From an uncultured Gammaproteobacteria bacterium (lineage in GTDB: Bacteria; Patescibacteriota; Microgenomatia; Daviesbacterales; UBA10151), in NCBI GenBank assembly GCA_964392925.1, contig CAYMRP010000002.1, positions 72,759 through 136,758 of the forward strand: 64,000 bases of DNA. The letters run 5' to 3'. The notes beneath the pieces were generated by a model. It saw nothing but the letters and a program-made list of their open reading frames with translations, did no database searches and had not been told where the DNA came from. Both the position numbers and the translations under genes were made by a program. Below are positions 2,716-58,847 of this stretch, one piece after another. Position 1 is the first letter of the stretch. The number at the start of each line of letters is the position of its first letter.

Positions 2716-3132
2716 TTAATCGTGATGGATACCTAACAAATGCCGGGTTCCGTGTTCAACCAAAAATCTCAACTCTTCTTCGACTGACACCCCCTCAATA
2801 GCTGCATCTTTAATTACTTGTGGATAAGAAATCATAATATCCCCTAGCTGTAAAACTTTATCTGGAGCTTTCACAAAACCAACCTTTGGAACATGCTGTA
2901 AACTCGCAGAAGCCGTTGGATCTTCCAGCGGAAAAGATAAAATATTAGTCGTCGCGTCTTGTCCGCGAAACTTCTTATTAATCTCATGCATCTGCTTATC
3001 ACCAACCACAGTAATTCCAATCTCTAAATTTCCCTGAATTCTGTGCTGCTTGAGAATATCTAAAACTGTAGCCTGAATACCAAGCTTGCTTATTGGATAT
3101 CGAGGATCGGAATTGACAACAATGTTAATCAT
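2716..3132 (-). CDS. ybeY: rRNA maturation endoribonuclease YbeY
   Basis: 138 aa, C-terminal H..H....H metal motif (HGTRHLLGIHHD). Confidence 0.75.
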   Translation of the reverse strand: MINIVVNSDPRYPISKLGIQATVLDILKQHRIQGNLEIGITVVGDKQMHEINKKFRGQDATTNILSFPLEDPTASASLQHVPKVGFVKAPDKVLQLGDIMISYPQVIKDAAIEGVSVEEELRFLVEHGTRHLLGIHHD

Positions 3133-9815: not shown

Positions 9816-10271
9816 TTAGCTGCCTAACGCAATTCTTGTGAACTTTCCAATCTTAATATTCTCGCCTAATTTTGCTATTGCAGATTTTATTAAATCTCCT
9901 ACCTTTTGGCTTGGATCTCTAACATAATCTTGGTCTAATAATTCTTCTTCGTTCTCAGGATTCATTGAAGCAATCTGAAGTGCAATCTCGTGAGCTAATG
10001 TTTTAAAATCCTCTGTTTTAGCCACAAAATCAGTCTCACATAAAACTTCGACTAAAACTCCTACTCTTCCTCCGTGTGAATATGTTTCTACAACACCAGC
10101 TGAAACTTCTCTATCGGATTTTGAACCTGCTTTATCCAGTCCTTTTTGGTGAAGTATATCTTTAGCTTTCTTCATATCACCTTCAGCCTCAGTAAGCGCA
10201 GTTTTACAATCTGCAATACCAGCTCCGGTCTCTTCTCTTAACTTTTTAATATCATCTACATTGATTGCCAT
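9816..10271 (-). CDS. tsf: elongation factor Ts (short form)
   Basis: 151 aa; N-terminal UBA-like IKKLREETGAGIADCKTAL signature of EF-Ts. Confidence 0.85.
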   Translation of the reverse strand: MAINVDDIKKLREETGAGIADCKTALTEAEGDMKKAKDILHQKGLDKAGSKSDREVSAGVVETYSHGGRVGVLVEVLCETDFVAKTEDFKTLAHEIALQIASMNPENEEELLDQDYVRDPSQKVGDLIKSAIAKLGENIKIGKFTRIALGS

Positions 10272-10282
10272 AATATATAGTA

Positions 10283-10318
10283 ATTTAACAATTTAACAAT
10301 TTAACAATTTAACAATTA
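10283..10318. repeat. tandem octamer repeat (TTTAACAA)x4
   Basis: taatttaacaatttaacaatttaacaatttaacaatta between rpsB stop and tsf start. Confidence 0.9.
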
Positions 10319-11197
10319 TTCTACTTTTCTAGAACTTTCATCTACAACTTTTTTCTCAATCTCTTCTTCAATCACAGCTGCTTCCTGCGCTAATACTTCA
10401 TCTAATTCCTCTTCTTTTGATTCAGCTTTTTCTGCTTTAGAAGTTTTTGTTTCTACTTTAGCTTCTCCAACTTTAATTCCAGCTTCTTTTTTACCCTCTG
10501 CATAAGCCCGGATTATAGTTTCACAAACTATTTTAATCGATTTAATACCATCATCGTTTGCAGAAACTGGATAATCAAACCATGTTGGATCTGCATTCGT
10601 GTCGCAAAGTCCAATCACTTTAACGCCCATTTTATTAGCTTCCCTAACTGCAATATTATCGCCAACTGCATCTACCACAAATAATGCATCAGGCATTTTC
10701 GTCATTCCAATCGCTCCACCCATTTCATTAGTGAATTTATAAAGTTTTTTACCAATCAACATTTGCTCTCTTTTTGTATAGCGGGAAAGTGTTCCTTTTT
10801 CCTGTTCAGCTTTAAGTTCTGATAATTTCTTCCAGTTTTTCTTAATCTCATCAAAATTAGTAAATATTCCTCCGTACCAGGTTTTATTTAAGTAAAATGT
10901 ATCAGCTTCTTTAGCTAATTCTGCAACAACATCCTGAGCCTGCTTTTTAGTTCCAACCATCAACAAAACCTGTCCAGCTTTACCCATTTGATAAGCTGCT
11001 TCTGCAGCTTCTTTTAGTTGCTCCTCCGAATGAGCTAAGTCTAAAATATGTACTCCGTCACGGGCTCCGAAGATGTATCTTTTCATCTTTGGATGTCCAC
11101 GCGAAACTTTATGTCCAAAATGGACACCAGCTCCGAGTAATTCTTGCATGTCAGGTGTTTTAATAGTTGCCATAATTATCTTTCTTATAACTCGCAC
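10316..11197 (-). CDS. rpsB: 30S ribosomal protein S2 (with acidic C-terminal extension)
   Basis: 293 aa; S2 signatures; rpsB-tsf arrangement. Confidence 0.9.
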   Translation of the reverse strand: MRVIRKIIMATIKTPDMQELLGAGVHFGHKVSRGHPKMKRYIFGARDGVHILDLAHSEEQLKEAAEAAYQMGKAGQVLLMVGTKKQAQDVVAELAKEADTFYLNKTWYGGIFTNFDEIKKNWKKLSELKAEQEKGTLSRYTKREQMLIGKKLYKFTNEMGGAIGMTKMPDALFVVDAVGDNIAVREANKMGVKVIGLCDTNADPTWFDYPVSANDDGIKSIKIVCETIIRAYAEGKKEAGIKVGEAKVETKTSKAEKAESKEEELDEVLAQEAAVIEEEIEKKVVDESSRKVE

Positions 11198-42958: not shown

Positions 42959-43720
42959 ATGGATTCTAAATCGAAAATAATTTTCCTCGGCACTCCCGAT
43001 TACCTTAATCCAATAATTAAGTCCTTAGATGAGAATTTTGATTTAGTTAAAATTATCAGAAAAACCAGCGACCTAAACAACGAAACAATAGAACAATTTA
43101 ACAATTTAAAACCTGATCTTCTAGTTGTTGCTTCTTTTGGCAAAATCATTCCCCAGGAAATATTAAACATTCCTAAACTTGGAGCCATTAATATTCACCC
43201 TTCAAAACTCCCGCTTTACCGAGGACCTTCACCAATTCAGTCTCAAATTATAGATGAAGTAACCGATTCAGCAATCAGCTTTATTTTAATGGACCAGGAA
43301 ATGGATCACGGCCCATTAATTTACCAGGAACCTTTTGAAATCAAACAAGACGATACTTTTGAATCTCTTTTAACTTCAATGTTTCAAAAATCAGCAGATA
43401 TTCTACCGATCGTAATCCAAAGTCTTGCAGACAATAAATTATCTCCAATTGATCAAAACCATGATGAAGCTACTTTTTGCAAAGAAATTCAAAAAGAGGA
43501 TGGTTACTTTGATATCGAAAATCCTCCGGCGTTAGAAGTCTTAAATAAAATGATCAGAGCCTATTATCCTTGGCCCGGAACCTGGACAAAATGGAACAAC
43601 AAAATAGTAAAACTACTGCCAGAAGGCAAAATCCAAATGGAAGGCAAAAGTCCGACCGATTTAAAATCATTTCTCAATGGCTACCCGACATTCCCCCTAA
43701 AATCCTTAATTGCTGAGTAG
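42959..43720 (+). CDS. fmt: methionyl-tRNA formyltransferase (short form)
   Basis: 253 aa; formyltransferase N-domain (NIHPSKLPLYRGPSP), def-fmt synteny. Confidence 0.8.
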   Translation: MDSKSKIIFLGTPDYLNPIIKSLDENFDLVKIIRKTSDLNNETIEQFNNLKPDLLVVASFGKIIPQEILNIPKLGAINIHPSKLPLYRGPSPIQSQIIDEVTDSAISFILMDQEMDHGPLIYQEPFEIKQDDTFESLLTSMFQKSADILPIVIQSLADNKLSPIDQNHDEATFCKEIQKEDGYFDIENPPALEVLNKMIRAYYPWPGTWTKWNNKIVKLLPEGKIQMEGKSPTDLKSFLNGYPTFPLKSLIAE

Positions 43721-43764
43721 CCCTATAGTTTGATTTAGGCACAATAATAGTCTATAATACCCAC

Positions 43765-44994
43765 ATGCCCATACTAGAACGTAGACGCTTCATAGCCCTC
43801 CTTGCCGGAGCCTCAGCAGGAACAGCCATCGCTTTAACAGAAAGTAACCCTTCAATAGCCTTGGCTAGCCCCTTAAAATCTGAAGCTTTCCAACCTCAGA
43901 TCATAACTCCCCCTGCACATATACACACCTTTAATCCTCTTCTCCGTTTACAACAAACCTCAACAGACCTGGCAGCTCGGCCCTTAAACACCCAACAAGC
44001 AGACATGCTCTTAAATCAACTCGCAGACTGGAACGTCACCAGAACTGACGGCATACTAACCGACCCATCATTACTTTCAAATACTTACTTATTAACAAAT
44101 GGTCCAGAAACCACTACTAAACCTCCATATGATAAAAACTCCGACCCTTTAAAACATCCAGTCATACAAGATTTTTATACCAGATATCCCGACTATCAAT
44201 ATTCAGTGGAATCAGCAGAAAGACTTCTTTTTCTTTATTACACACCTGCGCTTGGAGCAACTCCAAATTCTGGGACCAGAGAATCGATTATTAATCTTGA
44301 TGCAACAAATAGGCCCCAGATCAACCCTCAAAGAAGAGGGGCTCTATTATTTCAATACCACGGAGTTGAGGCCGATCCAATAAAAACGACTGCTACTCCT
44401 CCAATCGTCCTTTTATCTACCGGACAGCATGAATGGGTTCATCAAGATAATTGGGGAATCAAAAAACCTCTGGACCAAGATTTAATAACCTTCTTAGAAC
44501 ACGACTATAAAGGAAAATCAAAACCCACTTTCGCCGGGAGCCAGGATAATTTTGCGGTCAATTACACTCTAACCAACGAAGACGGCGCTCAGATTCCTAG
44601 TTATAGTGTTAAATTCAATGAACTAATAACTGACTTTCTAAGCTCTGAAGTATTTAGACAAGCAGGTCTCCCTTTCTTCACAGGTTACGATCTCAAACCT
44701 ACAGACTATTTCAATATTCTAAGAATTATGGATCAATCAGGACTTAATCTGCAGACTCTGAATCAGATGTATAAACATGCGCGGCTAACCGATTTCTATC
44801 TTGCGATAGCTTCTGGAGCAGAAGCAGATGGTAAAAAAACCTTTTCAGAATCAAACAATAACAGAGATAAAATAGCTTTTGCCACAAAAATTATGCCCTG
44901 GTGGGATTTTCCGGATTGGAATCCAACTCCAAACGATCCTAGAAAATTAGACCCAACTGTTTATTACAGAGGTTTAGTAAAAGCAACAGCGTAA
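43765..44994 (+). CDS. hypothetical Tat-secreted protein
   Basis: 409 aa; twin-arginine signal ERRRFIALLAGASAGTAIA; TATAAT 6 nt upstream of ATG (leaderless). Confidence 0.55.
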   Translation: MPILERRRFIALLAGASAGTAIALTESNPSIALASPLKSEAFQPQIITPPAHIHTFNPLLRLQQTSTDLAARPLNTQQADMLLNQLADWNVTRTDGILTDPSLLSNTYLLTNGPETTTKPPYDKNSDPLKHPVIQDFYTRYPDYQYSVESAERLLFLYYTPALGATPNSGTRESIINLDATNRPQINPQRRGALLFQYHGVEADPIKTTATPPIVLLSTGQHEWVHQDNWGIKKPLDQDLITFLEHDYKGKSKPTFAGSQDNFAVNYTLTNEDGAQIPSYSVKFNELITDFLSSEVFRQAGLPFFTGYDLKPTDYFNILRIMDQSGLNLQTLNQMYKHARLTDFYLAIASGAEADGKKTFSESNNNRDKIAFATKIMPWWDFPDWNPTPNDPRKLDPTVYYRGLVKATA

Positions 44995-45004
44995 GAAATA
45001 GAGA

Positions 45005-45253
45005 TTATGCAGCAACAGGAGCTTCAGCTTTGCTTCCAGAGGAAGGGCGTATTGGAGCTACCCAAACAGGTTTAACAATTCTCAAACATTTTGTGCAGTA
45101 CTTATTACCTTTATAAGCGTGAAGATTTGGTTTCTGAACATTCTTATGGATTTGAGCTCGTAATGGCCACTCAGAAGCACCGGACGAACCTTTCTGATGT
45201 CTTGACCATGATCTTATTGTTGAACCTTTAGTGCAAAGCGTACAAACTGCCAT
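45005..45253 (-). CDS. rpmB: 50S ribosomal protein L28 (with C-terminal extension)
   Basis: MAVCTLCTKGSTIRSWSRHQKG...PNLHAYKG matches L28; probable start 45251-45253. Confidence 0.7.
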   Translation of the reverse strand: MAVCTLCTKGSTIRSWSRHQKGSSGASEWPLRAQIHKNVQKPNLHAYKGNKYCTKCLRIVKPVWVAPIRPSSGSKAEAPVAA

Positions 45254-45315
45254 AATAACTACTTCCCTTTCAAGTCGTGATAGAATAACATAATTCAAAT
45301 TAAAATTCCATACCT

Positions 45316-45960
45316 ATGGCCGAGATCGTAGCCTTATCAATAGTCATCTTAATATTCTCCGTTATCGTCCATGAAGTCATGCACGGATACGTCGCTTTAA
45401 TGTTTGGCGATCACACCGCAGAAAGGGCCGGCAGACTAACCCTAAATCCCATTCCTCATATCGACCCAATAGGCACAATTCTTCTACCAGGAGTTCTTTT
45501 GTTAATCCCACTTCTAACTGGAACTTCTCCAGGCTTTCTTATTGGTTGGGCTAAACCAGTTCCAGTTAATCCTTTAAACTTCCGCGAGCTTAGAAAAGGT
45601 GAAATTATGGTTTCATTAGCCGGAGTCTTTTCTAACTTCGGTCTAGCTCTGGCCTTCGCAGTTTTATATCACATTGCTACCGCCTTTTTCCCAAACACTC
45701 TCGCCCTTCAGGTATTTGAGTTTGGTGTCCAAATTAATTTAGTTTTAGCCATTTTTAACTTACTGCCGATCCCTCCTTTAGACGGATCAAAAGTTTTAAT
45801 CGCTCTTCTTCCTTACGAAGCTGCTAAAAGATTCGAAGCGATTTCCTTCCAGTATGGCTTCTTTATAATCCTGCTCCTTTTATACCTTGATATCATCGGT
45901 ACAATTATGGGATTTATCATTCCTCCACTCAAAATGATACTCGGTTTACCTCCTTTTTAG
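45316..45960 (+). CDS. M50-family (site-2 protease-like) membrane metalloprotease
   Basis: 214 aa; HEVMHGYVA (HExxH) in TM1, LDGSK motif in later TM. Confidence 0.75.
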   Translation: MAEIVALSIVILIFSVIVHEVMHGYVALMFGDHTAERAGRLTLNPIPHIDPIGTILLPGVLLLIPLLTGTSPGFLIGWAKPVPVNPLNFRELRKGEIMVSLAGVFSNFGLALAFAVLYHIATAFFPNTLALQVFEFGVQINLVLAIFNLLPIPPLDGSKVLIALLPYEAAKRFEAISFQYGFFIILLLLYLDIIGTIMGFIIPPLKMILGLPPF

Positions 45961-46364
45961 GCACAAATTAAGCCGTTTAACCCCCTGTATAGATCCTTCC
46001 TTAATTTGACACAAATCGCCCTTTTTGGTAACTTTAGGGAGTTCCTTTAAAAAGAACGTAGGCTCAAAAAGCCTTCCCCGCAAGGGAATTTGCCTACTTC
46101 GCACGTTTACTTCTTAAGTTGCATTTTTCTCCACATTTTGCAACCTGATAAGGGATTTCTGCCTTAAACAGCAGGATATTGTTCTCGTATTTGAGATCCT
46201 TGGATCAAAAGATCAGAACTCCCATCTTAAAATTTATCGGGGGAAAACGCTTAAGACCACGGCTAAGTAGGCAGAAATTATTAATATTGATAGAATAAAC
46301 TAGTCACTTCATTGCGGCTAGTTTTTTGTTTTTAAAGGACAGAACAATTAATTTCAAATAATTG

Positions 46365-46436
46365 AGCCGACAATGGGAATCGGACCCATGACCCCGTTCT
46401 TACCAAGAACGTGCTCTACCACTGAGCCATGTCGGC
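46365..46436 (-). tRNA. tRNA-Thr (anticodon GGU)
   Basis: GCCGACATGGCTCAGTGGTAGAGCACGTTCTTGGTAAGAACGGGGTCATGGGTCCGATTCCCATTGTCGGCT; cloverleaf with 7-bp acceptor, anticodon loop UUGGUAA. Confidence 0.85.
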
Positions 46437-46440
46437 AAAC

Positions 46441-46489
46441 TACAAACTGGCGATGTGGCAAGCTCTGCTTACCACTGAGCCATGTCGGC
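46441..46489 (-). pseudogene. truncated tRNA 5' fragment (acceptor + D-arm only), repeat of tRNA-Thr 5' half
   Basis: GCCGACATGGCTCAGTGGTAAGCAGAGC... then no anticodon/T arms. Confidence 0.6.
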
Positions 46490-46499
46490 AAAAAACAAT

Positions 46500-46623
46500 C
46501 TAAACCGCGAGTGAACGTACTCTTCCAGGGATAAATTATTTCTAGTCTGTCGCTTTGCGACATTGTATGTAATTATCCCGTTAAAGCAGGGTTTCCTGCT
46601 TTAACCCACTGAGCCATGTCGGC
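46500..46623 (-). ncRNA. structured non-coding region beginning with a third tRNA-Thr 5' fragment
   Basis: GCCGACATGGCTCAGTGGG followed by 10-bp hairpin TTAAAGCAGG/CCTGCTTTAA, GTCGCAAAGCGAC hairpin, GGGATAAtTa...tAATTTATCCC inverted repeat and T6; directly downstream of the HNH gene. Confidence 0.35.
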
Positions 46624-46653
46624 AATCAAAACATGGAGAATTGTACCAAATTC

Positions 46654-47058
46654 TCACGATTTAATATATTTGTTCTTTCGCCATTCACGTCCTCGTCCTT
46701 TATTCAAATTTCTAAAATTGACAGTTAGTGCATGGCAGTTGGGACATAACAATCTTAAATTACTCTCAATACTATTCTCACCATTACCATCTATATGATC
46801 AATCTCTAGTGGTACTCTCAAAGTAATCTGATGCTTTTGATTCCAACCACAGCTGGAACACACTTCTCCAAATTTCTCAATTAAATAACGCTTGATATGT
46901 TGAGAAATATTTCTGGTATTAATTCCACGGCTACCATCCTTTTCTCCTCTTAGCCAAGCTTTTATGTAAGTTTTATATTGGCTTATGGCCTGACATCTAT
47001 TCGAACAATACTTAGAAGATCTTTTTAACTTTGCTGCACACTCAATACAGTTCTGCAT
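46654..47058 (-). CDS. HNH endonuclease with N-terminal zinc-ribbon
   Basis: 134 aa; CIECAAKL...YCSNRC zinc ribbon, HNH core EIDHIDGNGENSIESNLRLLCPNCHA. Confidence 0.8.
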   Translation of the reverse strand: MQNCIECAAKLKRSSKYCSNRCQAISQYKTYIKAWLRGEKDGSRGINTRNISQHIKRYLIEKFGEVCSSCGWNQKHQITLRVPLEIDHIDGNGENSIESNLRLLCPNCHALTVNFRNLNKGRGREWRKNKYIKS

Positions 47059-47111
47059 AATAACATTAAACCAGTTGTCGTATTACAACTGGTTTAACAA
47101 ATAAAAAAAGG

Positions 47112-47184
47112 AGCCGACAGCTGGATTCGAACCTGCGACCCATGCTTTACAAAAGCATTGCTCTAACCACTGAGCCATGTCGGC
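47112..47184 (-). tRNA. tRNA-Thr (anticodon UGU)
   Basis: GCCGACATGGCTCAGTGGTTAGAGCAATGCTTTTGTAAAGCATGGGTCGCAGGTTCGAATCCAGCTGTCGGCT; first 20 nt identical to tRNA-Thr(GGU). Confidence 0.85.
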
Positions 47185-47287
47185 TTTAAGTGTAAATTCT
47201 AACAAAAACAACCAATTAAAGAAAGTTTCTACTTAAATAACTCTATCGTTGCAAATATATCCTCATTTGATGTAAAATTCCCAAGTT

Positions 47288-47458
47288 ATGGCAAAGAAAG
47301 ACGCAAGAGCAGCTATTGGTTTAGGATGTACTGAATGCAAATCCAGAAATTATATAACTGAAAAGAATTCAACTAACACCAAAGAAAAATTATCTATTAA
47401 TAAATACTGCAAAAAATGCAGAAAAGCTACCCTGCACGAAGAGTATAAGCTTAAATAG
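47288..47458 (+). CDS. rpmG: 50S ribosomal protein L33
   Basis: 56-aa ORF (below 60-aa ORF-track cutoff): MAKKDARAAIGLGCTECKSRNYITEKN...KYCKKCRKATLHEEYKLK, zinc-ribbon L33. Confidence 0.8.
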   Translation: MAKKDARAAIGLGCTECKSRNYITEKNSTNTKEKLSINKYCKKCRKATLHEEYKLK

Positions 47459-47606
47459 AATTTAAGCTTGCAGCTTTGCTTAAAGCTCAAGTAAACTTGA
47501 TCTTGCGGCTTCGCCTAAAACTCAAATCTTCATCATGCATATTCCTAGAAACTAAATATCTACTCTTTCCTTTACAACTCCTCCAAAATTCGTATATAGT
47601 GAGATC

Positions 47607-48617
47607 ATGGACTTTCGAGGCCTCTCCGATCCAGTCGTAATTTTTAATAAGCCTAATAAAAAACCCGGCATTTTCCAAAAAATAAAGCCGCCAACTACTG
47701 ATTTTTTCAAGAATAAAAAAATACTCGGCGGAGCTTTAACGGTGATGCTTCTCTTCGCCGTTGGCCTGGGAGTTTTCTTAACTCAAAAACCTACCCAGCT
47801 TGCTCCAAAGGCTGATGAATCCGGAGCCGATATCTCAATTCAACCTCCAACCCAAACTGTAACATCTAGCCAGGAGTTTGAAAGCGATGTTTTTATTAAC
47901 ACCAACGACCTCTCTATATCTGCTGTCAAAGTGAAAATCGATTTTGATTCAAAGCTCGAATTGATGGACGTTACCATAGGCACATTTTTACCCACCTTTC
48001 TTATTGAACCCGTTATAACTGACTCTTCAGTCTCGTTTACGCTGGCCAGCAATCCGGCAAAAAAAGGATCTGGAATCCTAGCAAAATTAAAATTTAAGCC
48101 TGTGTCAGAAGCAAGTGGAAGTGCCCTTATTGGCTTTGATCAAACAGAAACAGAAGCTGCAGCGACAGAAAGCGGTAGCCTGAATAAGGCAGTTGGCTTC
48201 CTTGGCTCCCAAATCACTATCACAAGTGAGTTTACTCAATTCTGTAGCTCTACAGCAGATTGTCCAGCCGGCTATTATTGCCCAACTATTCCTGTGGCAT
48301 CTGGAGTTGCTGGTGACCCAATCTGTCAACTGATCTCCAGTCCAAGTCCAAGTCCAAGCGCATCAGCCTCAGCCTCTCCATCACCATCTCCTCTAGCTTC
48401 CCCAAGAAACCAAGTACCGGCTGGTTCTGACGGCGATGCTAATTCAGATGGAATCCTAGACCTCCAAGACCTATCTATACTTTTCACTCAATGGAGCCCG
48501 GCATCAGATATAACTGGATTTTTTAATCTGGATTTTAACGATGATAAACGAATAAATTCTATAGATTATTCGCTTTTCAAACAGAAGCTTGTCGAATACG
48601 CAATTCTCAGACCTTAA
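47607..48617 (+). CDS. secreted protein with cohesin-like domain, Ser/Pro/Ala linker and C-terminal dockerin-like Ca-binding repeats
   Basis: 336 aa; N-terminal TM/signal; ...SPSPSPSASASASPSPSPLASP linker; GSDGDANSDGILDLQDLSILF...LDFNDDKRINSIDYSLF. Confidence 0.55.
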   Translation: MDFRGLSDPVVIFNKPNKKPGIFQKIKPPTTDFFKNKKILGGALTVMLLFAVGLGVFLTQKPTQLAPKADESGADISIQPPTQTVTSSQEFESDVFINTNDLSISAVKVKIDFDSKLELMDVTIGTFLPTFLIEPVITDSSVSFTLASNPAKKGSGILAKLKFKPVSEASGSALIGFDQTETEAAATESGSLNKAVGFLGSQITITSEFTQFCSSTADCPAGYYCPTIPVASGVAGDPICQLISSPSPSPSASASASPSPSPLASPRNQVPAGSDGDANSDGILDLQDLSILFTQWSPASDITGFFNLDFNDDKRINSIDYSLFKQKLVEYAILRP

Positions 48618-48650
48618 ATACAAAATCTCAAAATATATAATGTATATAGG

Positions 48651-48695
48651 ATCTCCAAAATTTCCTTTGGAAATTTTAAAAGGAGGAATCGCGGA
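48651..48695. repeat. 45-nt direct repeat copy 1 (palindrome AAAATTTCCtttGGAAATTTT + AAAAGGAGGAATCGCGGA)
   Basis: identical (1 mismatch) to copy at 48766-48810. Confidence 0.85.
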
Positions 48696-48765
48696 AAGCT
48701 TCACTTTCGGTAGACAATCAAGCTCCTAAGCAAACTCCGACATTATTTTTAGAATCGCATCTCTT

Positions 48766-48810
48766 ATCTCCAAAATTTCCTTTGGAAATTTTAAAAGGAG
48801 GAATCGCGGA
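48766..48810. repeat. 45-nt direct repeat copy 2
   Basis: atctccaaaatttcctttggaaattttaaaaggaggaatcgcgga. Confidence 0.85.
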
Positions 48811-48857
48811 GAGTTTGAATTACGAAGTAATCAAACTCAAAAGCGTATTCCGACGTG

Positions 48858-48929
48858 CACGGGTGGTAGGACTTGAACCTACAACCGATGGTTTTGGAGA
48901 CCATTGCGCTACCATTGCGCCACACCCGT
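48858..48929 (-). tRNA. tRNA-Trp (anticodon CCA)
   Basis: ACGGGTGTGGCGCAATGGTAGCGCAATGGTCTCCAAAACCATCGGTTGTAGGTTCAAGTCCTACCACCCGTG; anticodon loop CUCCAAA. Confidence 0.85.
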
Positions 48930-48978
48930 ATAACTCCAAATTCTAACACAATTATACTATTCTGACCTGATCCCTATC

Positions 48979-49010
48979 TCACTTGTCACTTGTCACTTGT
49001 CACTTGTCAC
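48979..49010. repeat. tandem heptamer repeat (CACTTGT)x4 upstream of pilin gene
   Basis: tcacttgtcacttgtcacttgtcacttgtcac about 25 nt upstream of the pilin ATG. Confidence 0.9.
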
Positions 49011-49032
49011 CTAGAAATTGTATGCTTAATTT

Positions 49033-49611
49033 ATGCTGCCAAAGTACTTTAGATCTTCGTTCCGGGGTTTTACTTTAATCGAGCTTCTTGTAGCTATTTC
49101 AATTCTTGCTATAGTTGCAGCAATCGGCTTAACCACCTTCACCCAAGCTCAAAAAGTTGCCCGGGACTCAAAGCGAAAACAAGATTTACGATCGATCGCA
49201 GTAGCCCTGGAAGTCTACTATCAAAAATATAAACATTACCCCTGCGCCACCTGGTGGATTAACTCAACAAGTGGTGGCTATTGGATTACGAATACATCTA
49301 ATACTCCTGGAGAAACTGCTAACTGCGGCAACACCTCATCTGCAACCTCTGATCCTTTTAATTCGACCTTCATTACTACAATGCCTGTTGATCCTATTAA
49401 TAGCGGTGGCTACAGTTATGTTTATTGGAGCAGAGGAGACGGCTATGCTGGTCCACCTGCATGCAGCACAGTTACCGGGCAAGCTTATTACATGTACGCA
49501 AAACTAGAGAACGCAGCAGACCCCGATGCTCATTCAAAAAAACAATATAAGTTCTGCAACACAGTCTTTGGTGCAACATTTGATAACTATTTCTTTGTTA
49601 CCTCAGAATAA
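49033..49611 (+). CDS. type IV pilin / pseudopilin-like protein (prepilin N-terminal methylation motif)
   Basis: 192 aa; RGFTLIELLVAISILAIVAAIG class III signal peptide. Confidence 0.8.
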   Translation: MLPKYFRSSFRGFTLIELLVAISILAIVAAIGLTTFTQAQKVARDSKRKQDLRSIAVALEVYYQKYKHYPCATWWINSTSGGYWITNTSNTPGETANCGNTSSATSDPFNSTFITTMPVDPINSGGYSYVYWSRGDGYAGPPACSTVTGQAYYMYAKLENAADPDAHSKKQYKFCNTVFGATFDNYFFVTSE

Positions 49612-49614
49612 TCT

Positions 49615-50937
49615 ATGGACGAAATCCCCAAGGCCAAACACGATCATAAGGCTTTAAAATTCCCCGATAACTTTCTATGGGGAACAGCGACCGCAGCGCA
49701 TCAAATAGAAGGCAATAATACTAATAGTGACTGGTGGGCTTGGGAACAAAAACATCAACCTGAAGATAAAAGAAGCGGCCAAGCAGCTGACTCTTATAAC
49801 CGGTATGAGGAAGATTTTGCCTTAGCAGAGTCACTGAATCTTAACGCTCAAAGAATCTCAGTCGAATGGGCTCGGATCGAGCCTGAGAACGGCCAATTCG
49901 ATCATTCCGAAATTGAGCATTACCGCAAAGTCCTGCAGTCTCTTAAGCATAAACATTTTACAGTTATGTTAACGCTCTGGCATTTTACATTACCTAAATG
50001 GGTCGCGGATCTTGGAGGCTGGGAAAACCCTATGACAGCAGAATATTTTCAAAGATTTTTAAAAGAAATTATTCCCGCTTTTGATGAGTATGTTGATTTT
50101 TGGATCACTTTAAACGAACCAGGAGTTTATGTATTTATGGCCTATCTTCAGGGACTCTGGCCTCCTCAAAAAAAGAGTAAATGGGCTGCCGGTCTGGTTC
50201 ACTGGAATCTGACCCAAGCTCATAAAAAAGCTTATCATCTTATTCACTCACTCTCACGAAAACCTGTCGGCATTTCCCAAAACATGCAGTCATTTCATTC
50301 TAGCCATAGACATTCTTTAAGAGAACTCTTTGCAGTCTACATCAGTGATATAGTTTCTAACCATTCTTTTTATGTGCTGACGAAAGATTCTCATGATTTT
50401 ATCGGCATCAATTATTATTTTCATCATCGCTATAACACTAAAAAAAGTTTTTTGCCTCATTTGGATGAAGCTGCCGGGCAACACAGAGATGTTTCAGATT
50501 TAGGCTGGGAGGTTTTCCCTCAGGGACTATTTGATGTGCTAATGGATATTTCTAACCACAAACCTATCTATATAACCGAATGCGGAATCGCTTCCACAAA
50601 CGACGATCGCCGGACTCGATTCTTAATTCAATATCTTTCAGAAGTCTATCGGGCTGTCGAATCAGGAGTTAAGATAAAAGGATTCTTCTATTGGTCGCTG
50701 ATTGATAATTTTGAATGGCACCAGGGATTTGAGCCTAGATTCGGATTGATTGAAATGGATTACCCAACTCAAAAACGTAAAGTCCGACCCTCAGCTTATG
50801 TTTTCTCAGAGATTGCTCAGCATAACAAAATTCCTCATTCACTATTGCGCCTGCTTGGACATACAGTCAGAGTCGAAGAAGTTTTATGTTATATGCATGA
50901 CGGTCCTAAGGCTTTATGTGAGCATTTTCCAGATTAA
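49615..50937 (+). CDS. GH1-like beta-glucosidase (clan GH-A)
   Basis: 440 aa; acid/base TLNEP and nucleophile-region YITECG (ITENG-like), W-rich GH1 pattern. Confidence 0.7.
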   Translation: MDEIPKAKHDHKALKFPDNFLWGTATAAHQIEGNNTNSDWWAWEQKHQPEDKRSGQAADSYNRYEEDFALAESLNLNAQRISVEWARIEPENGQFDHSEIEHYRKVLQSLKHKHFTVMLTLWHFTLPKWVADLGGWENPMTAEYFQRFLKEIIPAFDEYVDFWITLNEPGVYVFMAYLQGLWPPQKKSKWAAGLVHWNLTQAHKKAYHLIHSLSRKPVGISQNMQSFHSSHRHSLRELFAVYISDIVSNHSFYVLTKDSHDFIGINYYFHHRYNTKKSFLPHLDEAAGQHRDVSDLGWEVFPQGLFDVLMDISNHKPIYITECGIASTNDDRRTRFLIQYLSEVYRAVESGVKIKGFFYWSLIDNFEWHQGFEPRFGLIEMDYPTQKRKVRPSAYVFSEIAQHNKIPHSLLRLLGHTVRVEEVLCYMHDGPKALCEHFPD

Positions 50938-56192: not shown

Positions 56193-56250
56193 ACCATTTA
56201 ACAATCAACCATTTAACAATCAACAATTTAGCAATTTAGCAATTTAGCAA
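56193..56250. repeat. tandem repeats (AACAATCAACCATTT)x2 + (CAATTTAG)x3
   Basis: aaccatttaacaatcaaccatttaacaatcaacaatttagcaatttagcaatttagcaacc; overlaps the last codons of rluB. Confidence 0.85.
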
Positions 56251-56779
56251 CCTCCTCCGAATTCAATTTCCTAAACTTACCTAATCCTAATTTCTCATCT
56301 CTTAAACTACCTATCGCTACCCTCTTTAAATCTAATAATTCTAACCCAACTTTTCCACACATTCTCCTCACCTGTCTATTCTTCCCTTCAAAAATAGTTA
56401 ATTCAAATATCTCACTGTTGCTCTCCCGCGAAATTAGTTTAACAACAGCCGGTGATGTCACACTGTCTTTTATCTCGAGTCCTTTTTCAAATTTTTTAAT
56501 AACTGGTTTCGGTAAAAATCCTCTGATTGTTAATTGATAAGTTTTGCCTAATTCATGAGAAGGGTGGGTGAGTCGATTCGAAAACTCTCCATCATTTGTA
56601 AATATTAAAAGCCCGGAGGTATTCTCGTCCAATCTCCCAACAGGAAAAACCTTCTCCGGCACTTTCACTAAATCCATCACAACCGGCCTGCTCAATTCAT
56701 CACTGGTCGTAGTTATATATCCTTTTGGTTTGTTTAATAAGTAGTAAACAAACTCTGTCTCGTCATTTATATTTTTCAT
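56228..56779 (-). CDS. pseudouridine synthase (RsuA/RluB family) with S4 domain
   Basis: 183 aa; GRLDENTSGLLIFTNDG catalytic Asp motif. Confidence 0.8.
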   Translation of the reverse strand: MKNINDETEFVYYLLNKPKGYITTTSDELSRPVVMDLVKVPEKVFPVGRLDENTSGLLIFTNDGEFSNRLTHPSHELGKTYQLTIRGFLPKPVIKKFEKGLEIKDSVTSPAVVKLISRESNSEIFELTIFEGKNRQVRRMCGKVGLELLDLKRVAIGSLRDEKLGLGKFRKLNSEEVAKLLNC

Positions 56780-56987: not shown

Positions 56988-57012
56988 GCCTCCTTAACAG
57001 GAGGTTTTTTTT
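56988..57012 (+). terminator. rho-independent terminator (cctcc-ttaaca-ggagg + T9)
   Basis: seen directly in sequence. Confidence 0.7.
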
Positions 57013-57016
57013 TGGT

Positions 57017-57091
57017 CAAAAATTCCACTGGAAGTTTTGACGGGTCAAGCACTATGACCGCCGGAGGCGGAATACAATATCAATCTTGACC
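57017..57091. repeat. composite element copy 1: palindrome AAAATTCCActGGAAgTTTT + inverted repeat GGGTCAAG...CTTGACCC enclosing CCGCCGGAGGCGG hairpin
   Basis: mirrors arrangement at 58398-58470. Confidence 0.6.
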
Positions 57092-57135
57092 CAGTAAAAT
57101 ATTTGTAAAAAATTAAAAGAAAGGAGGAAATAAAT

Positions 57136-58367: not shown

Positions 58368-58392
58368 CCTCCCGCAAGGGGGGCTTTTTTTT
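58368..58392 (+). terminator. rho-independent terminator (cctccc-gcaa-gggggg + T8)
   Basis: seen directly. Confidence 0.7.
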
Positions 58393-58397
58393 GGCTT

Positions 58398-58470
58398 GAA
58401 TGTCCAATGGACATTTAAGCGGGTCAATTACATTTAAGCCATCGCAGGATTGTAATGATGAAATTGACCC
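58398..58470. repeat. composite element copy 2: palindrome AATGTCCAaTGGACATT + inverted repeat GGGTCAATT...AATTGACCC
   Basis: same order and spacing relative to the preceding terminator as copy 1. Confidence 0.6.
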
Positions 58471-58847
58471 AGAAAGAAATTATGGCAGTATCACCTGAAA
58501 CACCTAGACAAATAAACCTAAAACAAAAAGTTGCTGTAGCCCAAAGCCTCTACCTACCAAAGGATGGGCGAGCAGAATTGATGCGCGCCAGACTTAAACA
58601 TGCTCCAGATGGAATAGAAGACGGTGTTACTGGTTTTGAACTAGATTCATTAGGAGGAGTTCAAAAAATATACACCCAGGACAAAAAACAATGGTATGAG
58701 ATTTTCCTTTTTGGACCAATAAAAAACCGTGACAGAGAATTAATTGCTCAGTACTTTGGTTTTAATGAAAAACAGAATCAACAGGTCCCAGGTATCGATC
58801 AGGTTGGTCCTTTTAGAATAAGAAAAAATTATTTCGTAACAACTTAA
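58455..58847 (+). CDS. hypothetical small protein (130 aa; alternative start 58482)
   Basis: ORF begins inside the inverted repeat; second ATG at 58482 (MAVSPETP) may be the real start. Confidence 0.5.
   Translation: MMKLTQKEIMAVSPETPRQINLKQKVAVAQSLYLPKDGRAELMRARLKHAPDGIEDGVTGFELDSLGGVQKIYTQDKKQWYEIFLFGPIKNRDRELIAQYFGFNEKQNQQVPGIDQVGPFRIRKNYFVTT

Follow-up and report, generated by a model that had tools for sequence, protein, structure and literature searches.

tRNA genes are known as integration sites of genomic islands, with duplicated tRNA 3' ends; in att duplications made by an integrase, it is the 3' part of the tRNA that is copied. Short palindromic repeats form further known classes, among them REP/BIME and the IS200/IS605-derived palindrome-associated elements (PATEs). 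CPR genomes, to which the locus described here belongs, are thought to take up DNA readily. In the same phylum, self-splicing introns are reported to interrupt tRNA genes, some of which escape standard tRNA finders. In phages, nuclease genes sit among tRNA genes. SegB of phage T4 is a free-standing GIY-YIG homing endonuclease encoded in a tRNA gene cluster; it recognises a tRNA gene motif and drives the inheritance of itself and of neighbouring tRNA genes, with cleavage and homing both shown experimentally (PMC2330249). [quoted passage not shown]

Here we describe a tRNA-Thr(UGU)/tRNA-Thr(GGU) pair of a CPR/Patescibacteria bacterium, a probable relative of Daviesbacteria, located in a 64,000-nt stretch of DNA (the window, from whose first letter all positions are counted), and propose, with a probability of roughly 0.6, that at least three kinds of event, independent of one another, have reshaped it. 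Exchangeable cargo would occupy the slot that separates the tRNA genes, here a free-standing HNH endonuclease gene, which in this clade would move as one block together with a tRNA-Thr(UGU) allele of its own. Partial duplications or insertions, a mechanism we infer from the sequences, would have left promoter-proximal parts of tRNA-Thr(GGU) as relics, each event keeping or regenerating an intact tRNA-Thr(GGU) copy downstream; relic A would reach up to the start of the anticodon loop and relic B up to the end of the D stem. A copy of a dispersed two-hairpin element would have come to lie in the D loop of relic A, and the resulting ~200-nt leader would be removed when RNase P matures tRNA-Thr(GGU).

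Layout of the tRNA-Thr locus

The initial annotation had reported four identical tRNA-Thr 5' halves, and an exact search of the DNA bore this out: the 18-mer GCCGACATGGCTCAGTGG occurs four times, always on the minus strand, with starts at 47184, 46623, 46489 and 46436, where 0 copies were expected (100 shuffles). Two of the copies are the 5' ends of intact tRNA-Thr(UGU) and tRNA-Thr(GGU) genes, both of which had been claimed and both of which are called by ARAGORN and by Rfam; the other two are 5' fragments. The ARAGORN check that had been suggested called the intact pair and neither fragment, nor did Rfam (RF00005, even at E<=10), and only the two intact genes match within 46200-47300. A 134-aa HNH gene that passes the Pfam HNH cut-off does lie between tRNA-Thr(UGU) and the fragments. 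The fragments are real, but both stand between the HNH gene and tRNA-Thr(GGU) and so do not flank the nuclease gene as had been stated. The same arrangement was found in independent assemblies (loci L001, L002, L088 and L117), which excludes an assembly artefact. From upstream to downstream, the features are as follows.

47196..47204, minus strand: extended -10-like box TGTTAGAAT, read from the sequence, 11 nt upstream of tRNA-Thr(UGU)
47110..47184, minus strand: intact tRNA-Thr(UGU) (ARAGORN; Rfam tRNA, 66.5 bits), first 18 nt identical to tRNA-Thr(GGU)
47064..47099, minus strand: palindrome between tRNA-Thr(UGU) and the HNH gene, a 15-bp terminator-like hairpin
47065-47073, minus strand: -10-like box TGGTTTAAT on the 3' arm of the palindrome, 6 nt before the HNH ATG
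46654..47058, minus strand: HNH endonuclease gene, 134 aa (ORF; Pfam HNH)
46640..46648, minus strand: extended -10-like box TGGTACAAT, standing 16 nt ahead of fragment 1
46606..46623, minus strand: putative relic A, part 1, tRNA-Thr nt 1-18 (exact 18-mer; the fragment at 46623)
46528..46605, minus strand: two-hairpin element, copy A (78 nt; fold z -7.5), inserted into relic A at its D loop
46513..46527, minus strand: relic A, junction TGGA plus part 2, AGAGTACGTTC, tRNA-Thr(GGU) nt 20-30 with one mismatch
46490..46512, minus strand: relic A, non-conserved tail ending in T6, variable between the window, L088, L117 and L201
46437..46489, minus strand: putative relic B, read from the sequence as tRNA nt 1-20, AGCA, GAGC (D-stem 3' strand) and a 25-nt tail (the fragment at 46489)
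46364..46436, minus strand: intact tRNA-Thr(GGU) (ARAGORN; Rfam, 65.7 bits)

Judged by their sequence, both fragments appear to be relic 5' parts of tRNA-Thr(GGU). Part 1 of relic A sits where the tRNA 5' end stands in insert-free alleles; part 2 (AGAGTACGTTC itself at 46513-46523, with AGAGCACGTTC at this site in L201 and AGAGCACATTC in L117) breaks off where the anticodon loop begins. The order of nt 1-18, the 78-nt element in the D loop and nt 20-30 is the same in the window, L117 and L201, and intact tRNAs match both ends of covariance model R1 once its middle is deleted. The stretch following the 46623 copy had been described as an unrelated, highly structured segment. Its T6 end is present and the proposed folding check, once run, gave a strong fold (z -3.6), but the segment is 116 nt long and not wholly unrelated, because tRNA nt 20-30 resume after the 78-nt element and a 4-nt junction; no canonical terminator hairpin precedes the T6 run. 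Relic B also folds strongly (z -3.7), its 25-nt tail being partly complementary to the fragment; it is longer in L117, shorter and diverged in L207, and absent from L088, L201, L003 and L209. When the segments of 116 nt and 35 nt were compared by BLAST and nhmmer with 87 loci and with the window itself, only orthologous copies came up, and exact-pattern scans of a viral collection for the fragment junction and hairpin 2 returned nothing, giving no support for a phage attP origin. Two other identities were considered and rejected: the 116-nt segment as a decayed tRNA-Tyr or other class II tRNA, which no Rfam model supports, and relic A as a tRNA interrupted by a group I intron, as no Rfam intron family matches and the interrupted copy in the window lacks its 3' half.

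The box TGTTAGAAT has the architecture TGnTAnAAT, as does the box upstream of the GGU locus, and TTTG.TA.AAT.C is the sole invariant block in an alignment of seven alleles, always standing ahead of the first GCCGACATGG copy, be it a fragment or an intact tRNA. We infer that the box at 46640..46648 is the promoter of the tRNA-Thr(GGU) transcription unit and that the box upstream of tRNA-Thr(UGU) is a promoter too. Because both relics lie downstream of this conserved extended -10 box and no second promoter for tRNA-Thr(GGU) is evident, they are probably transcribed as a ~200-nt structured 5' leader of the intact tRNA. A leader RNA had been suggested previously as a fusion to the HNH mRNA 3' end; a leader is indeed probable, but it would belong to tRNA-Thr(GGU), since the conserved box stands between the HNH stop codon and fragment 1. 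The palindrome ahead of the HNH gene keeps its pairing in L088 through a change on both arms, and palindromes with TGGTATA(A/C)T recur in the tRNA-to-HNH spacers of other phyla; it might act as a tRNA terminator, as an HNH promoter for a leaderless mRNA, or as an operator. At the other end of the locus, tRNA-Thr(GGU) is identical (73/73) across the window, L088 and L003, and its first 33 nt have an equal covariance-model score in L005, L116, L201, L207 and L209; beyond it, on the downstream side, the sequences of different strains cannot be aligned and contain different ORFs.

An HNH family linked to tRNA-Thr

The HNH protein combines an N-terminal four-Cys zinc ribbon with a core of the form CxxC...DH...N...CPNCH, and its residues 67-109 match Pfam PF01844 at 27.2 bits (cut-off 21.4). 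An alignment of 31 homologues shows no variation at any Cys, in the DH motif, or at N100 and H109, the invariant core positions being C67, C70, D87, H88, N100, C105, N107, C108 and H109. The AlphaFold model (pLDDT 86) has a beta-beta-alpha core, and Foldseek against the PDB gave weak matches (E ~0.01) to the HNH domains of McrA, PacI and Cap5, confirming the fold and adding no functional detail; a PDB sequence search with the family profile gave marginal matches to McrA and I-HmuI only. The best PADLOC match is 'homing endonuclease' (6e-11). Membership in IscB or ZorE was rejected, the NCBIfam matches to their HNH cores being far below threshold.

The family comprises 921 homologues, with a relative present in at least 542 species genomes. 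Among 80 bacterial genome loci, 74 have a tRNA-Thr gene within 300 nt of the HNH relative, on the same strand in 69, and the hosts in which the two are linked include Acidobacteria, Chloroflexia and cyanobacterial hosts. In non-CPR hosts the HNH gene is lower in G+C than its flanks and still abuts tRNA-Thr. Phage relatives occupy tRNA arrays; a tRNA lies within 200 nt of the relative in 62 of 80 viral loci and is a tRNA-Thr in 30 of those; in three named phages (a T5-like Klebsiella phage, GAP32 and Raoultella phage Ro1; 42-52% identity) the relative directly follows tRNA-Thr. No description of the link between the HNH gene and tRNA-Thr in CPR genomes was found in the literature searched. In this clade, a tRNA-Thr(UGU) allele with the anticodon arm ATGCT..AGCAT occurs only with the HNH gene, and HNH-less alleles have the arm GCTGT..ACAGC, so that the allele switches with the nuclease gene (8 vs 7 loci); ordinary recombination could also give both the allele switch and mosaic haplotypes. 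The idea of a universal 'immune' anticodon arm on the HNH-adjacent tRNA-Thr(UGU) was dropped, since the arms vary with host lineage.

The earlier suspicion that the HNH gene is mobile is well founded: with its tRNA-Thr linkage and its presence or absence between strains, it behaves like a mobile, tRNA-linked element. Two marks of free-standing homing genes are found here, presence or absence between close relatives (L117, L209) and a constant tRNA-Thr association across unrelated genomes. The protein is most likely a homing-type nuclease with a target in or beside tRNA-Thr genes. It is 50-70% identical across phyla, with 33 invariant columns; this conservation seems unusually high for a selfish gene, and a cellular function linked to tRNA-Thr would also fit.

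Allele series, two-hairpin element and origin of the relics

Related strains combine the parts of the locus differently. L209 has an empty slot between the tRNA genes at the syntenic locus; L003, L116 and L005 have the HNH gene without relics; L088 has the HNH gene and relic A; the window and L001 have the HNH gene with relics A and B. Where other cargo is present, L207 combines a GNAT gene with relic B, L117 has a GNAT gene in the HNH gene's place together with relics A and B (its L33 protein is identical to that of the window), and L201 has a PaaX-like ORF with relic A. L119 and L120, found via L33, show a different local synteny and no element. In L003 and L116, whose HNH is 96% identical, tRNA-Thr(GGU) begins 30 nt past the stop codon of that gene, at the very position that the start of fragment 1 takes in the window, which supports the view of the fragments as an insertion polymorphism. 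The initial annotation had named an ancestral arrangement of constant size and unrecognisable tRNA pieces as observations that would speak against it; we find size polymorphism and recognisable tRNA pieces. The series gives no order of events, as a deletion running exactly from one 18-nt repeat to another could make a without-relic allele out of a with-relic one.

Sequence identity changes along the haplotypes. The 5' part of the HNH gene is 99.1% identical between the window and L003 vs 92.9% between the window and L088; its 3' end and the spacer are 100% identical between L088 and L003, with the window at 66-77%; and relic A, absent from L003, is identical in the window and L088 (119/119). 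The haplotypes appear mosaic, with recombination breakpoints that would separate the HNH gene from relic A, and the tRNA pieces and the nuclease gene seem to have arrived independently. Relic A is present across strains whose M50 protease is 84-100% identical.

The element within relic A has two further copies in the window.

57015..57092, plus strand: two-hairpin element, copy B (covariance model R1 25.7 bits, R2 80 bits; fold z -4.8)
58394..58470, plus strand: two-hairpin element, copy C (R1 28.5 bits, R2 80.8 bits; fold z -8.0)

Both surfaced with the covariance model only, not with BLAST or nhmmer, and both lie directly 3' of an intrinsic terminator (CCTCCT..GGAGG T9 for copy B, which is 43 nt ahead of an ORF start; CCTCCC..GGGGGG CT8 for copy C). 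The three window copies have a common fold (z -4.8 to -8.0). In copy A, hairpin 1 is formed by GTTAAAGCAGG/CCTGCTTTAAC and hairpin 2 by GGGATAA...TTATCCC with an inner stem GTCGC/GCGAC; it entered the tRNA D loop cleanly, no more than 2-3 nt (TGG) being duplicated. Compensatory changes occur among the orthologues of copy A (L088, L117 and L201). In the family alignment 95.7% of cells are paired and both partners have changed in 11 of 20 pairs, a level of covariation reached by 0/500 shuffles (slid controls, 0-2); with the three distinct orthologues alone, the level was reached by 11/500 shuffles. The copies keep their structure and junction bases (G..C GGG..AA..TT..CCC) and have little stem sequence in common, and they appear too diverged for recent transposition or mobility. 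No Rfam family matches the element at gathering or permissive thresholds, at the locus or in copies B and C, and it is absent from ~530 kb of other CPR loci, compared with three copies in the 64-kb window. Apart from tRNAs, the same Rfam scan gave only a chance Phe-leader match on a terminator. The element looks like a palindrome-type repeat (REP- or PATE-like).

How the relics arose can be weighed against these data. The initial annotation read the fragments as target-site duplications or scars of HNH insertion into, or excision from, a tRNA-Thr gene, a reading favoured by the fact that they directly adjoin an HNH gene whose family shows tight linkage to tRNA-Thr genes. Moreover, at locus L032, from an unrelated genome, a GIY-YIG nuclease gene stands between a 5' tRNA-Thr(GGU) fragment and a regenerated intact tRNA, so that nuclease-gene insertion with tRNA 5' duplication does occur in CPR genomes. 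At the present locus this origin is unlikely, because related strains carry the HNH gene and the fragments separately (HNH without fragments in L003, L116 and L005; fragments without HNH in L117, L201 and L207); the tRNA promoter box between the HNH stop codon and fragment 1, and the breakpoints parting the HNH gene from relic A, also speak against it. Duplications left at the tRNA gene by genomic islands that an integrase had inserted and that were later lost in part would account for tRNA-Thr(GGU) as a synteny breakpoint, with fully different sequence downstream between strains, and for the copies of tRNA 3' ends found downstream in L005, L028, L117, L201 and L209. We nevertheless regard att duplications as very improbable here: the duplicated parts are promoter-proximal 5' parts, not tRNA 3' parts, only 35-116 nt lie between the repeats, and no integrase domain was found in the six flanking ORFs scanned against Pfam (42959-50937). 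Relic A runs to nt 30, and the repeats (family D6) extend for ~12 nt beyond the tRNA on its upstream side, which is more readily explained by duplication than by a crossover core. Similarity between isoacceptors does explain two of the four copies, which are no more than the 5' end that two isoacceptors have in common; as an account of all four, it or an assembly artefact can be practically dismissed, given two copies outside any tRNA, 0 chance matches expected, and a structure repeated in four independent assemblies and in diverged orthologues.

A different view is that relic A, either alone or together with relic B, forms a structured RNA with a function, a 5' leader or a small RNA that acts in tRNA-Thr(GGU) expression, processing or stability, or independently, its tRNA-like 5' part belonging to that function. 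It lies downstream of a conserved -10 box and folds strongly, its stems are kept via two-sided changes while its loops diverge, it is 100% identical in two haplotypes with different flanks, and it is kept where the M50 protease is 84-100% identical; given the compensatory changes and its persistence at only 84% identity, the leader could have a function. We consider this rather doubtful all the same: the leader is dispensable, because close relatives with the same tRNA and promoter (L003, L116, L209 and L005) lack relic A, the 3' third of relic A is not conserved, there is no Rfam match, the structured core is a dispersed element that also follows terminators upstream of unrelated ORFs, and the covariation test on the three orthologues alone is a weak one. 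Relics left by partial duplications or insertions, independently of the HNH gene, are the reading that we prefer.

A broader proposal, of rather low probability, joins two ideas, that the HNH family is a tRNA-Thr-specific homing system and that the two-hairpin element with its tRNA 5' mimic is a new structured leader RNA. If the first were true, the family would shuttle between the tRNA arrays of phages and bacterial chromosomes, CPR ones included, the adjacent tRNA-Thr gene would be carried along or converted, and HNH breaks in tRNA-Thr genes would repeatedly generate relic 5' parts; several lineages (the window, L032, L076) have such parts with their end point in the D arm or the anticodon loop. 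If the second were true, the leader would tune tRNA-Thr(GGU) maturation or level.

Implications and comparison with known systems

Should the family-wide linkage hold, the HNH protein, which is small and easy to express, would represent a natural nuclease directed against a tRNA gene, common to phages and ultra-small bacteria, and would offer a direct handle on the spread of selfish nuclease genes in CPR genomes, helping to explain how CPR tRNA loci turn into mosaics. Here an essential tRNA gene present as a sole copy would tolerate structured debris of ~200 nt lying between it and its promoter, and the relics call for caution in tRNA annotation and completeness estimates. The two-hairpin element, with its clear covariation, would be a repeat or an RNA motif not described before, and it can be searched for by covariance model.

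Like REP/BIME and PATEs, the element is short, non-coding, dispersed and intergenic, with two palindromes and two copies after terminators; unlike them, its copies share structure more than stem sequence and number three per 64 kb. Like the self-splicing introns of the same phylum, it is a structured insertion that interrupts a tRNA gene. Those introns lie in the anticodon loop, splice themselves and interrupt the only functional copy, whereas the window insert has 78 nt, lies in the D loop and matches no intron family, the interrupted copy lacking its 3' half and being followed by an intact one. As at tRNA-site islands, tRNA-Thr(GGU) marks a strain-variable cargo slot, with 3'-end copies downstream in relatives; in contrast to such islands, the window fragments are 5' parts upstream, and the six flanking ORFs scanned contain no integrase.

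The closest parallels are the phage tRNA regions. As with T4 SegB, the nuclease gene is free-standing between tRNA genes, the tRNA-Thr(UGU) allele switches along with it and haplotypes are mosaic; it differs in being HNH rather than GIY-YIG and in residing on a bacterial chromosome rather than in a phage. With T5 it shares HNH genes among tRNA genes, and tRNA-like stable RNAs and a pseudo-tRNA are annotated nearby in T5; across 62 HNH-core residues, hegA is 48% identical to the window protein. The T5 proteins, which are larger, have only the catalytic core in common with the window protein, which has its own N-terminal zinc ribbon, and the T5 genes are scattered through the array, whereas the window family in bacteria is specific to tRNA-Thr. 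No known principle is overturned by this locus, which mostly extends what is known of the T4 and T5 tRNA regions.

The HNH slot and its allele series

The 18-mer GCCGACATGGCTCAGTGG occurs four times in the window, exclusively on the minus strand (starts at 47184, 46623, 46489 and 46436; chance expectation 0). As the initial annotation had read it, two copies belong to intact tRNA-Thr genes and two to fragments, on which the 18-mer search, ARAGORN and Rfam agree, and a 134-aa HNH gene, above the Pfam HNH cut-off, lies between tRNA-Thr(UGU) and the fragments. Neither ARAGORN nor Rfam (matches with E<=10 included) returned further tRNAs in the region. The principal features are:

47110-47184, minus: tRNA-Thr(UGU) (ARAGORN and Rfam)
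46654-47058, minus: HNH ORF, 134 aa
46364-46436, minus: tRNA-Thr(GGU) (ARAGORN and Rfam)

Along the minus strand, tRNA-Thr(UGU) is followed by a hairpin, the HNH gene, a 30-nt spacer, fragment 1 (the 46623 copy) with a 116-nt segment ending in T6, fragment 2 (the 46489 copy) with 35 nt, and tRNA-Thr(GGU). The syntenic locus was retrieved in related strains through protein look-ups with HNH, L33 and M50 protease, the nearest named relatives being Candidatus Daviesbacteria; its flanking genes are fmt, M50 protease, L33, a dockerin protein, a pilin-like gene and beta-glucosidase.

Alleles of the syntenic locus (L numbers are loci of other genomes): cargo between the tRNA-Thr genes; fragments
L209: none, tRNAs 77 nt apart; none
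L003, L116, L004 (HNH 96% identical), L005 (73%): HNH; none, tRNA-Thr(GGU) ~30 nt past the stop codon
L088 (HNH 90%): HNH; fragment 1 and segment only
Window, L001, L002: HNH; fragments 1 and 2
L207: GNAT acetyltransferase, opposite strand; fragment-2-like piece
L117 (L33 protein identical to that of the window): GNAT; fragments 1 and 2, fragment 2 longer
L201, L202, L204 (M50 84% identical): PaaX-like ORF; diverged fragment 1 and segment

The existence of HNH-only, fragment-only and mixed alleles demonstrates that HNH gene and fragments occur independently, which excludes the proposal that the fragments are target duplications left by HNH insertion. Identities by segment among the window, L003 and L088 reveal recombination breakpoints around the locus.

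Identity by segment: window-L003; window-L088; L088-L003
HNH 5' part: 99.1%; 92.9%; 93.2%
HNH last 66 nt: 77.3%; 77.3%; 100%
30-nt spacer: 65.5%; 66.7%; 100%
Fragment 1, first 119 nt: absent in L003; 119/119; absent in L003
Both tRNAs: 100%; 100%; 100%

Sequence 3' of tRNA-Thr(GGU) is unalignable between strains and carries strain-specific cargo: none in the window, a 209-aa ORF in L088, a 535-aa ORF in L003 and L116, and a 255-aa ORF in L117, all three ORFs lacking Pfam matches. In the window (45961-46363) the empty slot is followed by ~330 nt of non-coding sequence (45961-46330), without an Rfam match and by eye ~95% identical to L117.

Across seven aligned alleles a single block is invariant, TTTG.TA.AAT.C, which is an extended -10-type box (TGGTACAAT, 46640-46648). 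It precedes the first GCCGACATGG copy, be it relic or intact gene, by 13-16 nt, and the same type (TGTTAGAAT) lies 11 nt upstream of tRNA-Thr(UGU); no comparable -10 box was seen just ahead of the window's intact tRNA-Thr(GGU). Since a box precedes the first copy in all seven alleles and none was seen next to the intact gene, we infer from these consensus matches that the fragments would be transcribed as a ~200-nt leader and then cut off by RNase P.

Relics of tRNA-Thr(GGU) and the two-hairpin element

The stretches of fragments 1 and 2 fold far more stably than shuffled controls (z -3.6 and -3.7, respectively). For the segment after the 46623 copy, a strong structure and a T6 end had been described correctly, but its description as unrelated sequence holds only in part, since tRNA nt 20-30 resume within it. 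By orthologue alignment, fragment 1 comprises tRNA nt 1-18, a 78-nt two-hairpin block, a 4-nt junction and tRNA nt 20-30 (AGAGTACGTTC in the window, AGAGCACGTTC in L201, AGAGCACATTC in L117); every copy stops where the anticodon loop begins, and intact tRNA-Thr genes match a covariance model of the region at both ends with the middle deleted. Fragment 2 comprises tRNA nt 1-20, AGCA (~40 nt in L117), the D-stem 3' strand GAGC and an unrelated tail able to pair back on the fragment. Given this anatomy, both fragments are relic 5' parts of tRNA-Thr(GGU).

Comparable debris is found elsewhere. Beyond the terminator of the intact gene, relatives carry a conserved pseudo 3' part of tRNA-Thr(GGU), from ~nt 44 to the 3' end (L209 1954-2095; L117 1795-1948; L005 1722-1890; L201 7270-7440), in which hairpins are inserted in the T loop and where the variable loop meets the T stem; the window lacks this part. 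In two other lineages, an older tRNA copy survives as 5' and 3' pieces with an intact tRNA nested between them. In a Harrisonbacteria genome (L032, 4112-4604), an 86-aa GIY-YIG gene (Pfam 1.3e-13) is inserted in tRNA-Thr(GGU): its ATG falls in the anticodon loop of the old copy and its stop codon within the regenerated intact tRNA. The old D arm contains an inserted hairpin, and the old 3' fragment lies downstream. In L041 (218-514), an intact tRNA-Val(GAC) is flanked by an nt 9-23 piece upstream and an nt 24-50 piece downstream, which looks like insertion of a new copy into an older one. At a further locus, L076, a hairpin follows a 5' fragment covering nt 1-24. Pseudo 3' parts, nested copies and this fragment together argue that tRNA genes of these genomes have been repeatedly rebuilt by insertions sparing an intact copy.

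The block in fragment 1 is a dispersed element, for which a covariance model gave two more full-length window matches, 56997-57110 (+) and 58379-58488 (+). These copies, each directly 3' of an intrinsic terminator and ahead of small ORF(s) without Pfam match, are:

57015-57092, plus: two-hairpin element
58394-58470, plus: two-hairpin element

The shared unit reads G, hairpin 1 (10-12 bp), C, GGG(A/T)(T/C)AA ... TT(A/G)(A/T)CCC, (A/T)G.AA; stem sequences diverge between copies, with pairing and junction bases retained. Across five aligned sequences, 95.7% of cells are paired and 11 of 20 pairs show two-sided changes, a covariation matched by 0 of 500 shuffles (slid controls, 0-2). Folded singly, every copy forms both hairpins again (z -3.4 to -8.0), and the orthologues alone give four compensatory pairs, from just three distinct sequences. 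A refined model recovered exactly three copies in the 64-kb window plus the L088, L117 and L201 orthologues, whereas ~530 kb of other CPR (Patescibacteria) loci yielded no copy; no Rfam family matches the element, either at the tRNA-Thr locus or at its other two positions in the window. Insertion into the tRNA D loop was clean, with a duplication of at most TGG. The element is similar to palindrome-type repeats such as REP/BIME or IS200/IS605-derived PATEs; its copies are too diverged for recent transposition, and it may function as an RNA motif.

Other repeats occur in the window. A 59-nt direct repeat (48651-48709 and 48766-48824) is 92% identical, its copies 115 nt apart, the second copy ending 33 nt from the 3' end of tRNA-Trp (48857-48929, minus), downstream of it. 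The 8-nt unit AACAATTT forms a short tandem array at 10271-10333, with similar runs at 43076-43122 and 56214-56252.

An HNH family linked to tRNA genes

The HNH protein has 921 homologues at E<=0.001, with 50-70% identity across CPR phyla, and relatives in at least 542 species-level genomes, mostly Patescibacteria; other carriers are Pyrinomonadaceae, a Chloroflexia bacterium and a Phormidium, and in non-CPR hosts G+C of the gene is lower than that of its flanks. No variation occurs in the four N-terminal Cys, the two CxxC pairs or the D-H, N and H residues. Structure prediction (pLDDT 86) confirms the HNH fold and nothing more, and in the defence library a homing-endonuclease model matches best.

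A tRNA-Thr lies no more than 300 nt from the HNH gene at 74 of the best 80 loci (same strand: 45 just upstream, 24 just downstream; opposite strand: 5), against an estimated chance adjacency of ~0.2% for about three tRNA-Thr genes per megabase-sized genome. Anticodons are mostly UGU, some GGU and one CGU, and the gene's place in the Thr-Tyr-Thr cluster differs between lineages. Within the clade, one tRNA-Thr(UGU) type accompanies all HNH-bearing alleles and another all HNH-less alleles, so gene and tRNA appear to travel as a block. In one Pyrinomonadaceae locus (L064, ~2900-3000), the adjacent tRNA-Thr retains its anticodon arm, T arm and acceptor 3' strand, with a degenerate 5' part and no ARAGORN call.

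More distant relatives (36-53% identity) belong to tRNA arrays on phage-like contigs, where the gene often precedes tRNA-Val(UAC) or adjoins tRNA-Thr; in three named phages it is directly 3' of tRNA-Thr. On metagenome contigs L094-L110, a subfamily with ~40% identity is placed in such arrays 8-40 nt ahead of tRNA-Val(UAC), which suggests HNH subfamilies with different tRNA partners.

A long perfect palindrome at 47064-47099 (minus) carries an extended -10-like TGGTATA(A/C)T box in its 3' arm, and tRNA-Thr/HNH spacers of L011, L013, L055, L078 and others contain the same type. The box lies 6-10 nt ahead of the HNH start codon, suggesting a leaderless HNH mRNA whose own promoter would overlap a tRNA terminator or an operator; such an overlap would be reminiscent of I-TevI autorepression.

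The initial interpretation is partly supported, its underlying observation being confirmed. Most likely, the locus is layered: a free-standing, tRNA-linked HNH gene would fill an exchangeable slot between two tRNA-Thr genes and, independently of it, two tRNA-Thr(GGU) 5' relics would lie between the tRNA promoter and the intact gene, one of them bearing the dispersed two-hairpin element. Our literature search found no description of a CPR-wide HNH/tRNA-Thr link. The group I introns in Patescibacteria tRNA genes (PMC13011429) are a different kind of insertion from that at this locus. The nearest described systems to the HNH gene are the T4 SegB and T5 F-Tfl endonucleases of tRNA gene regions (PMC2330249, PMC5714182), and T5 hegA has a catalytic core in common with the window HNH protein.
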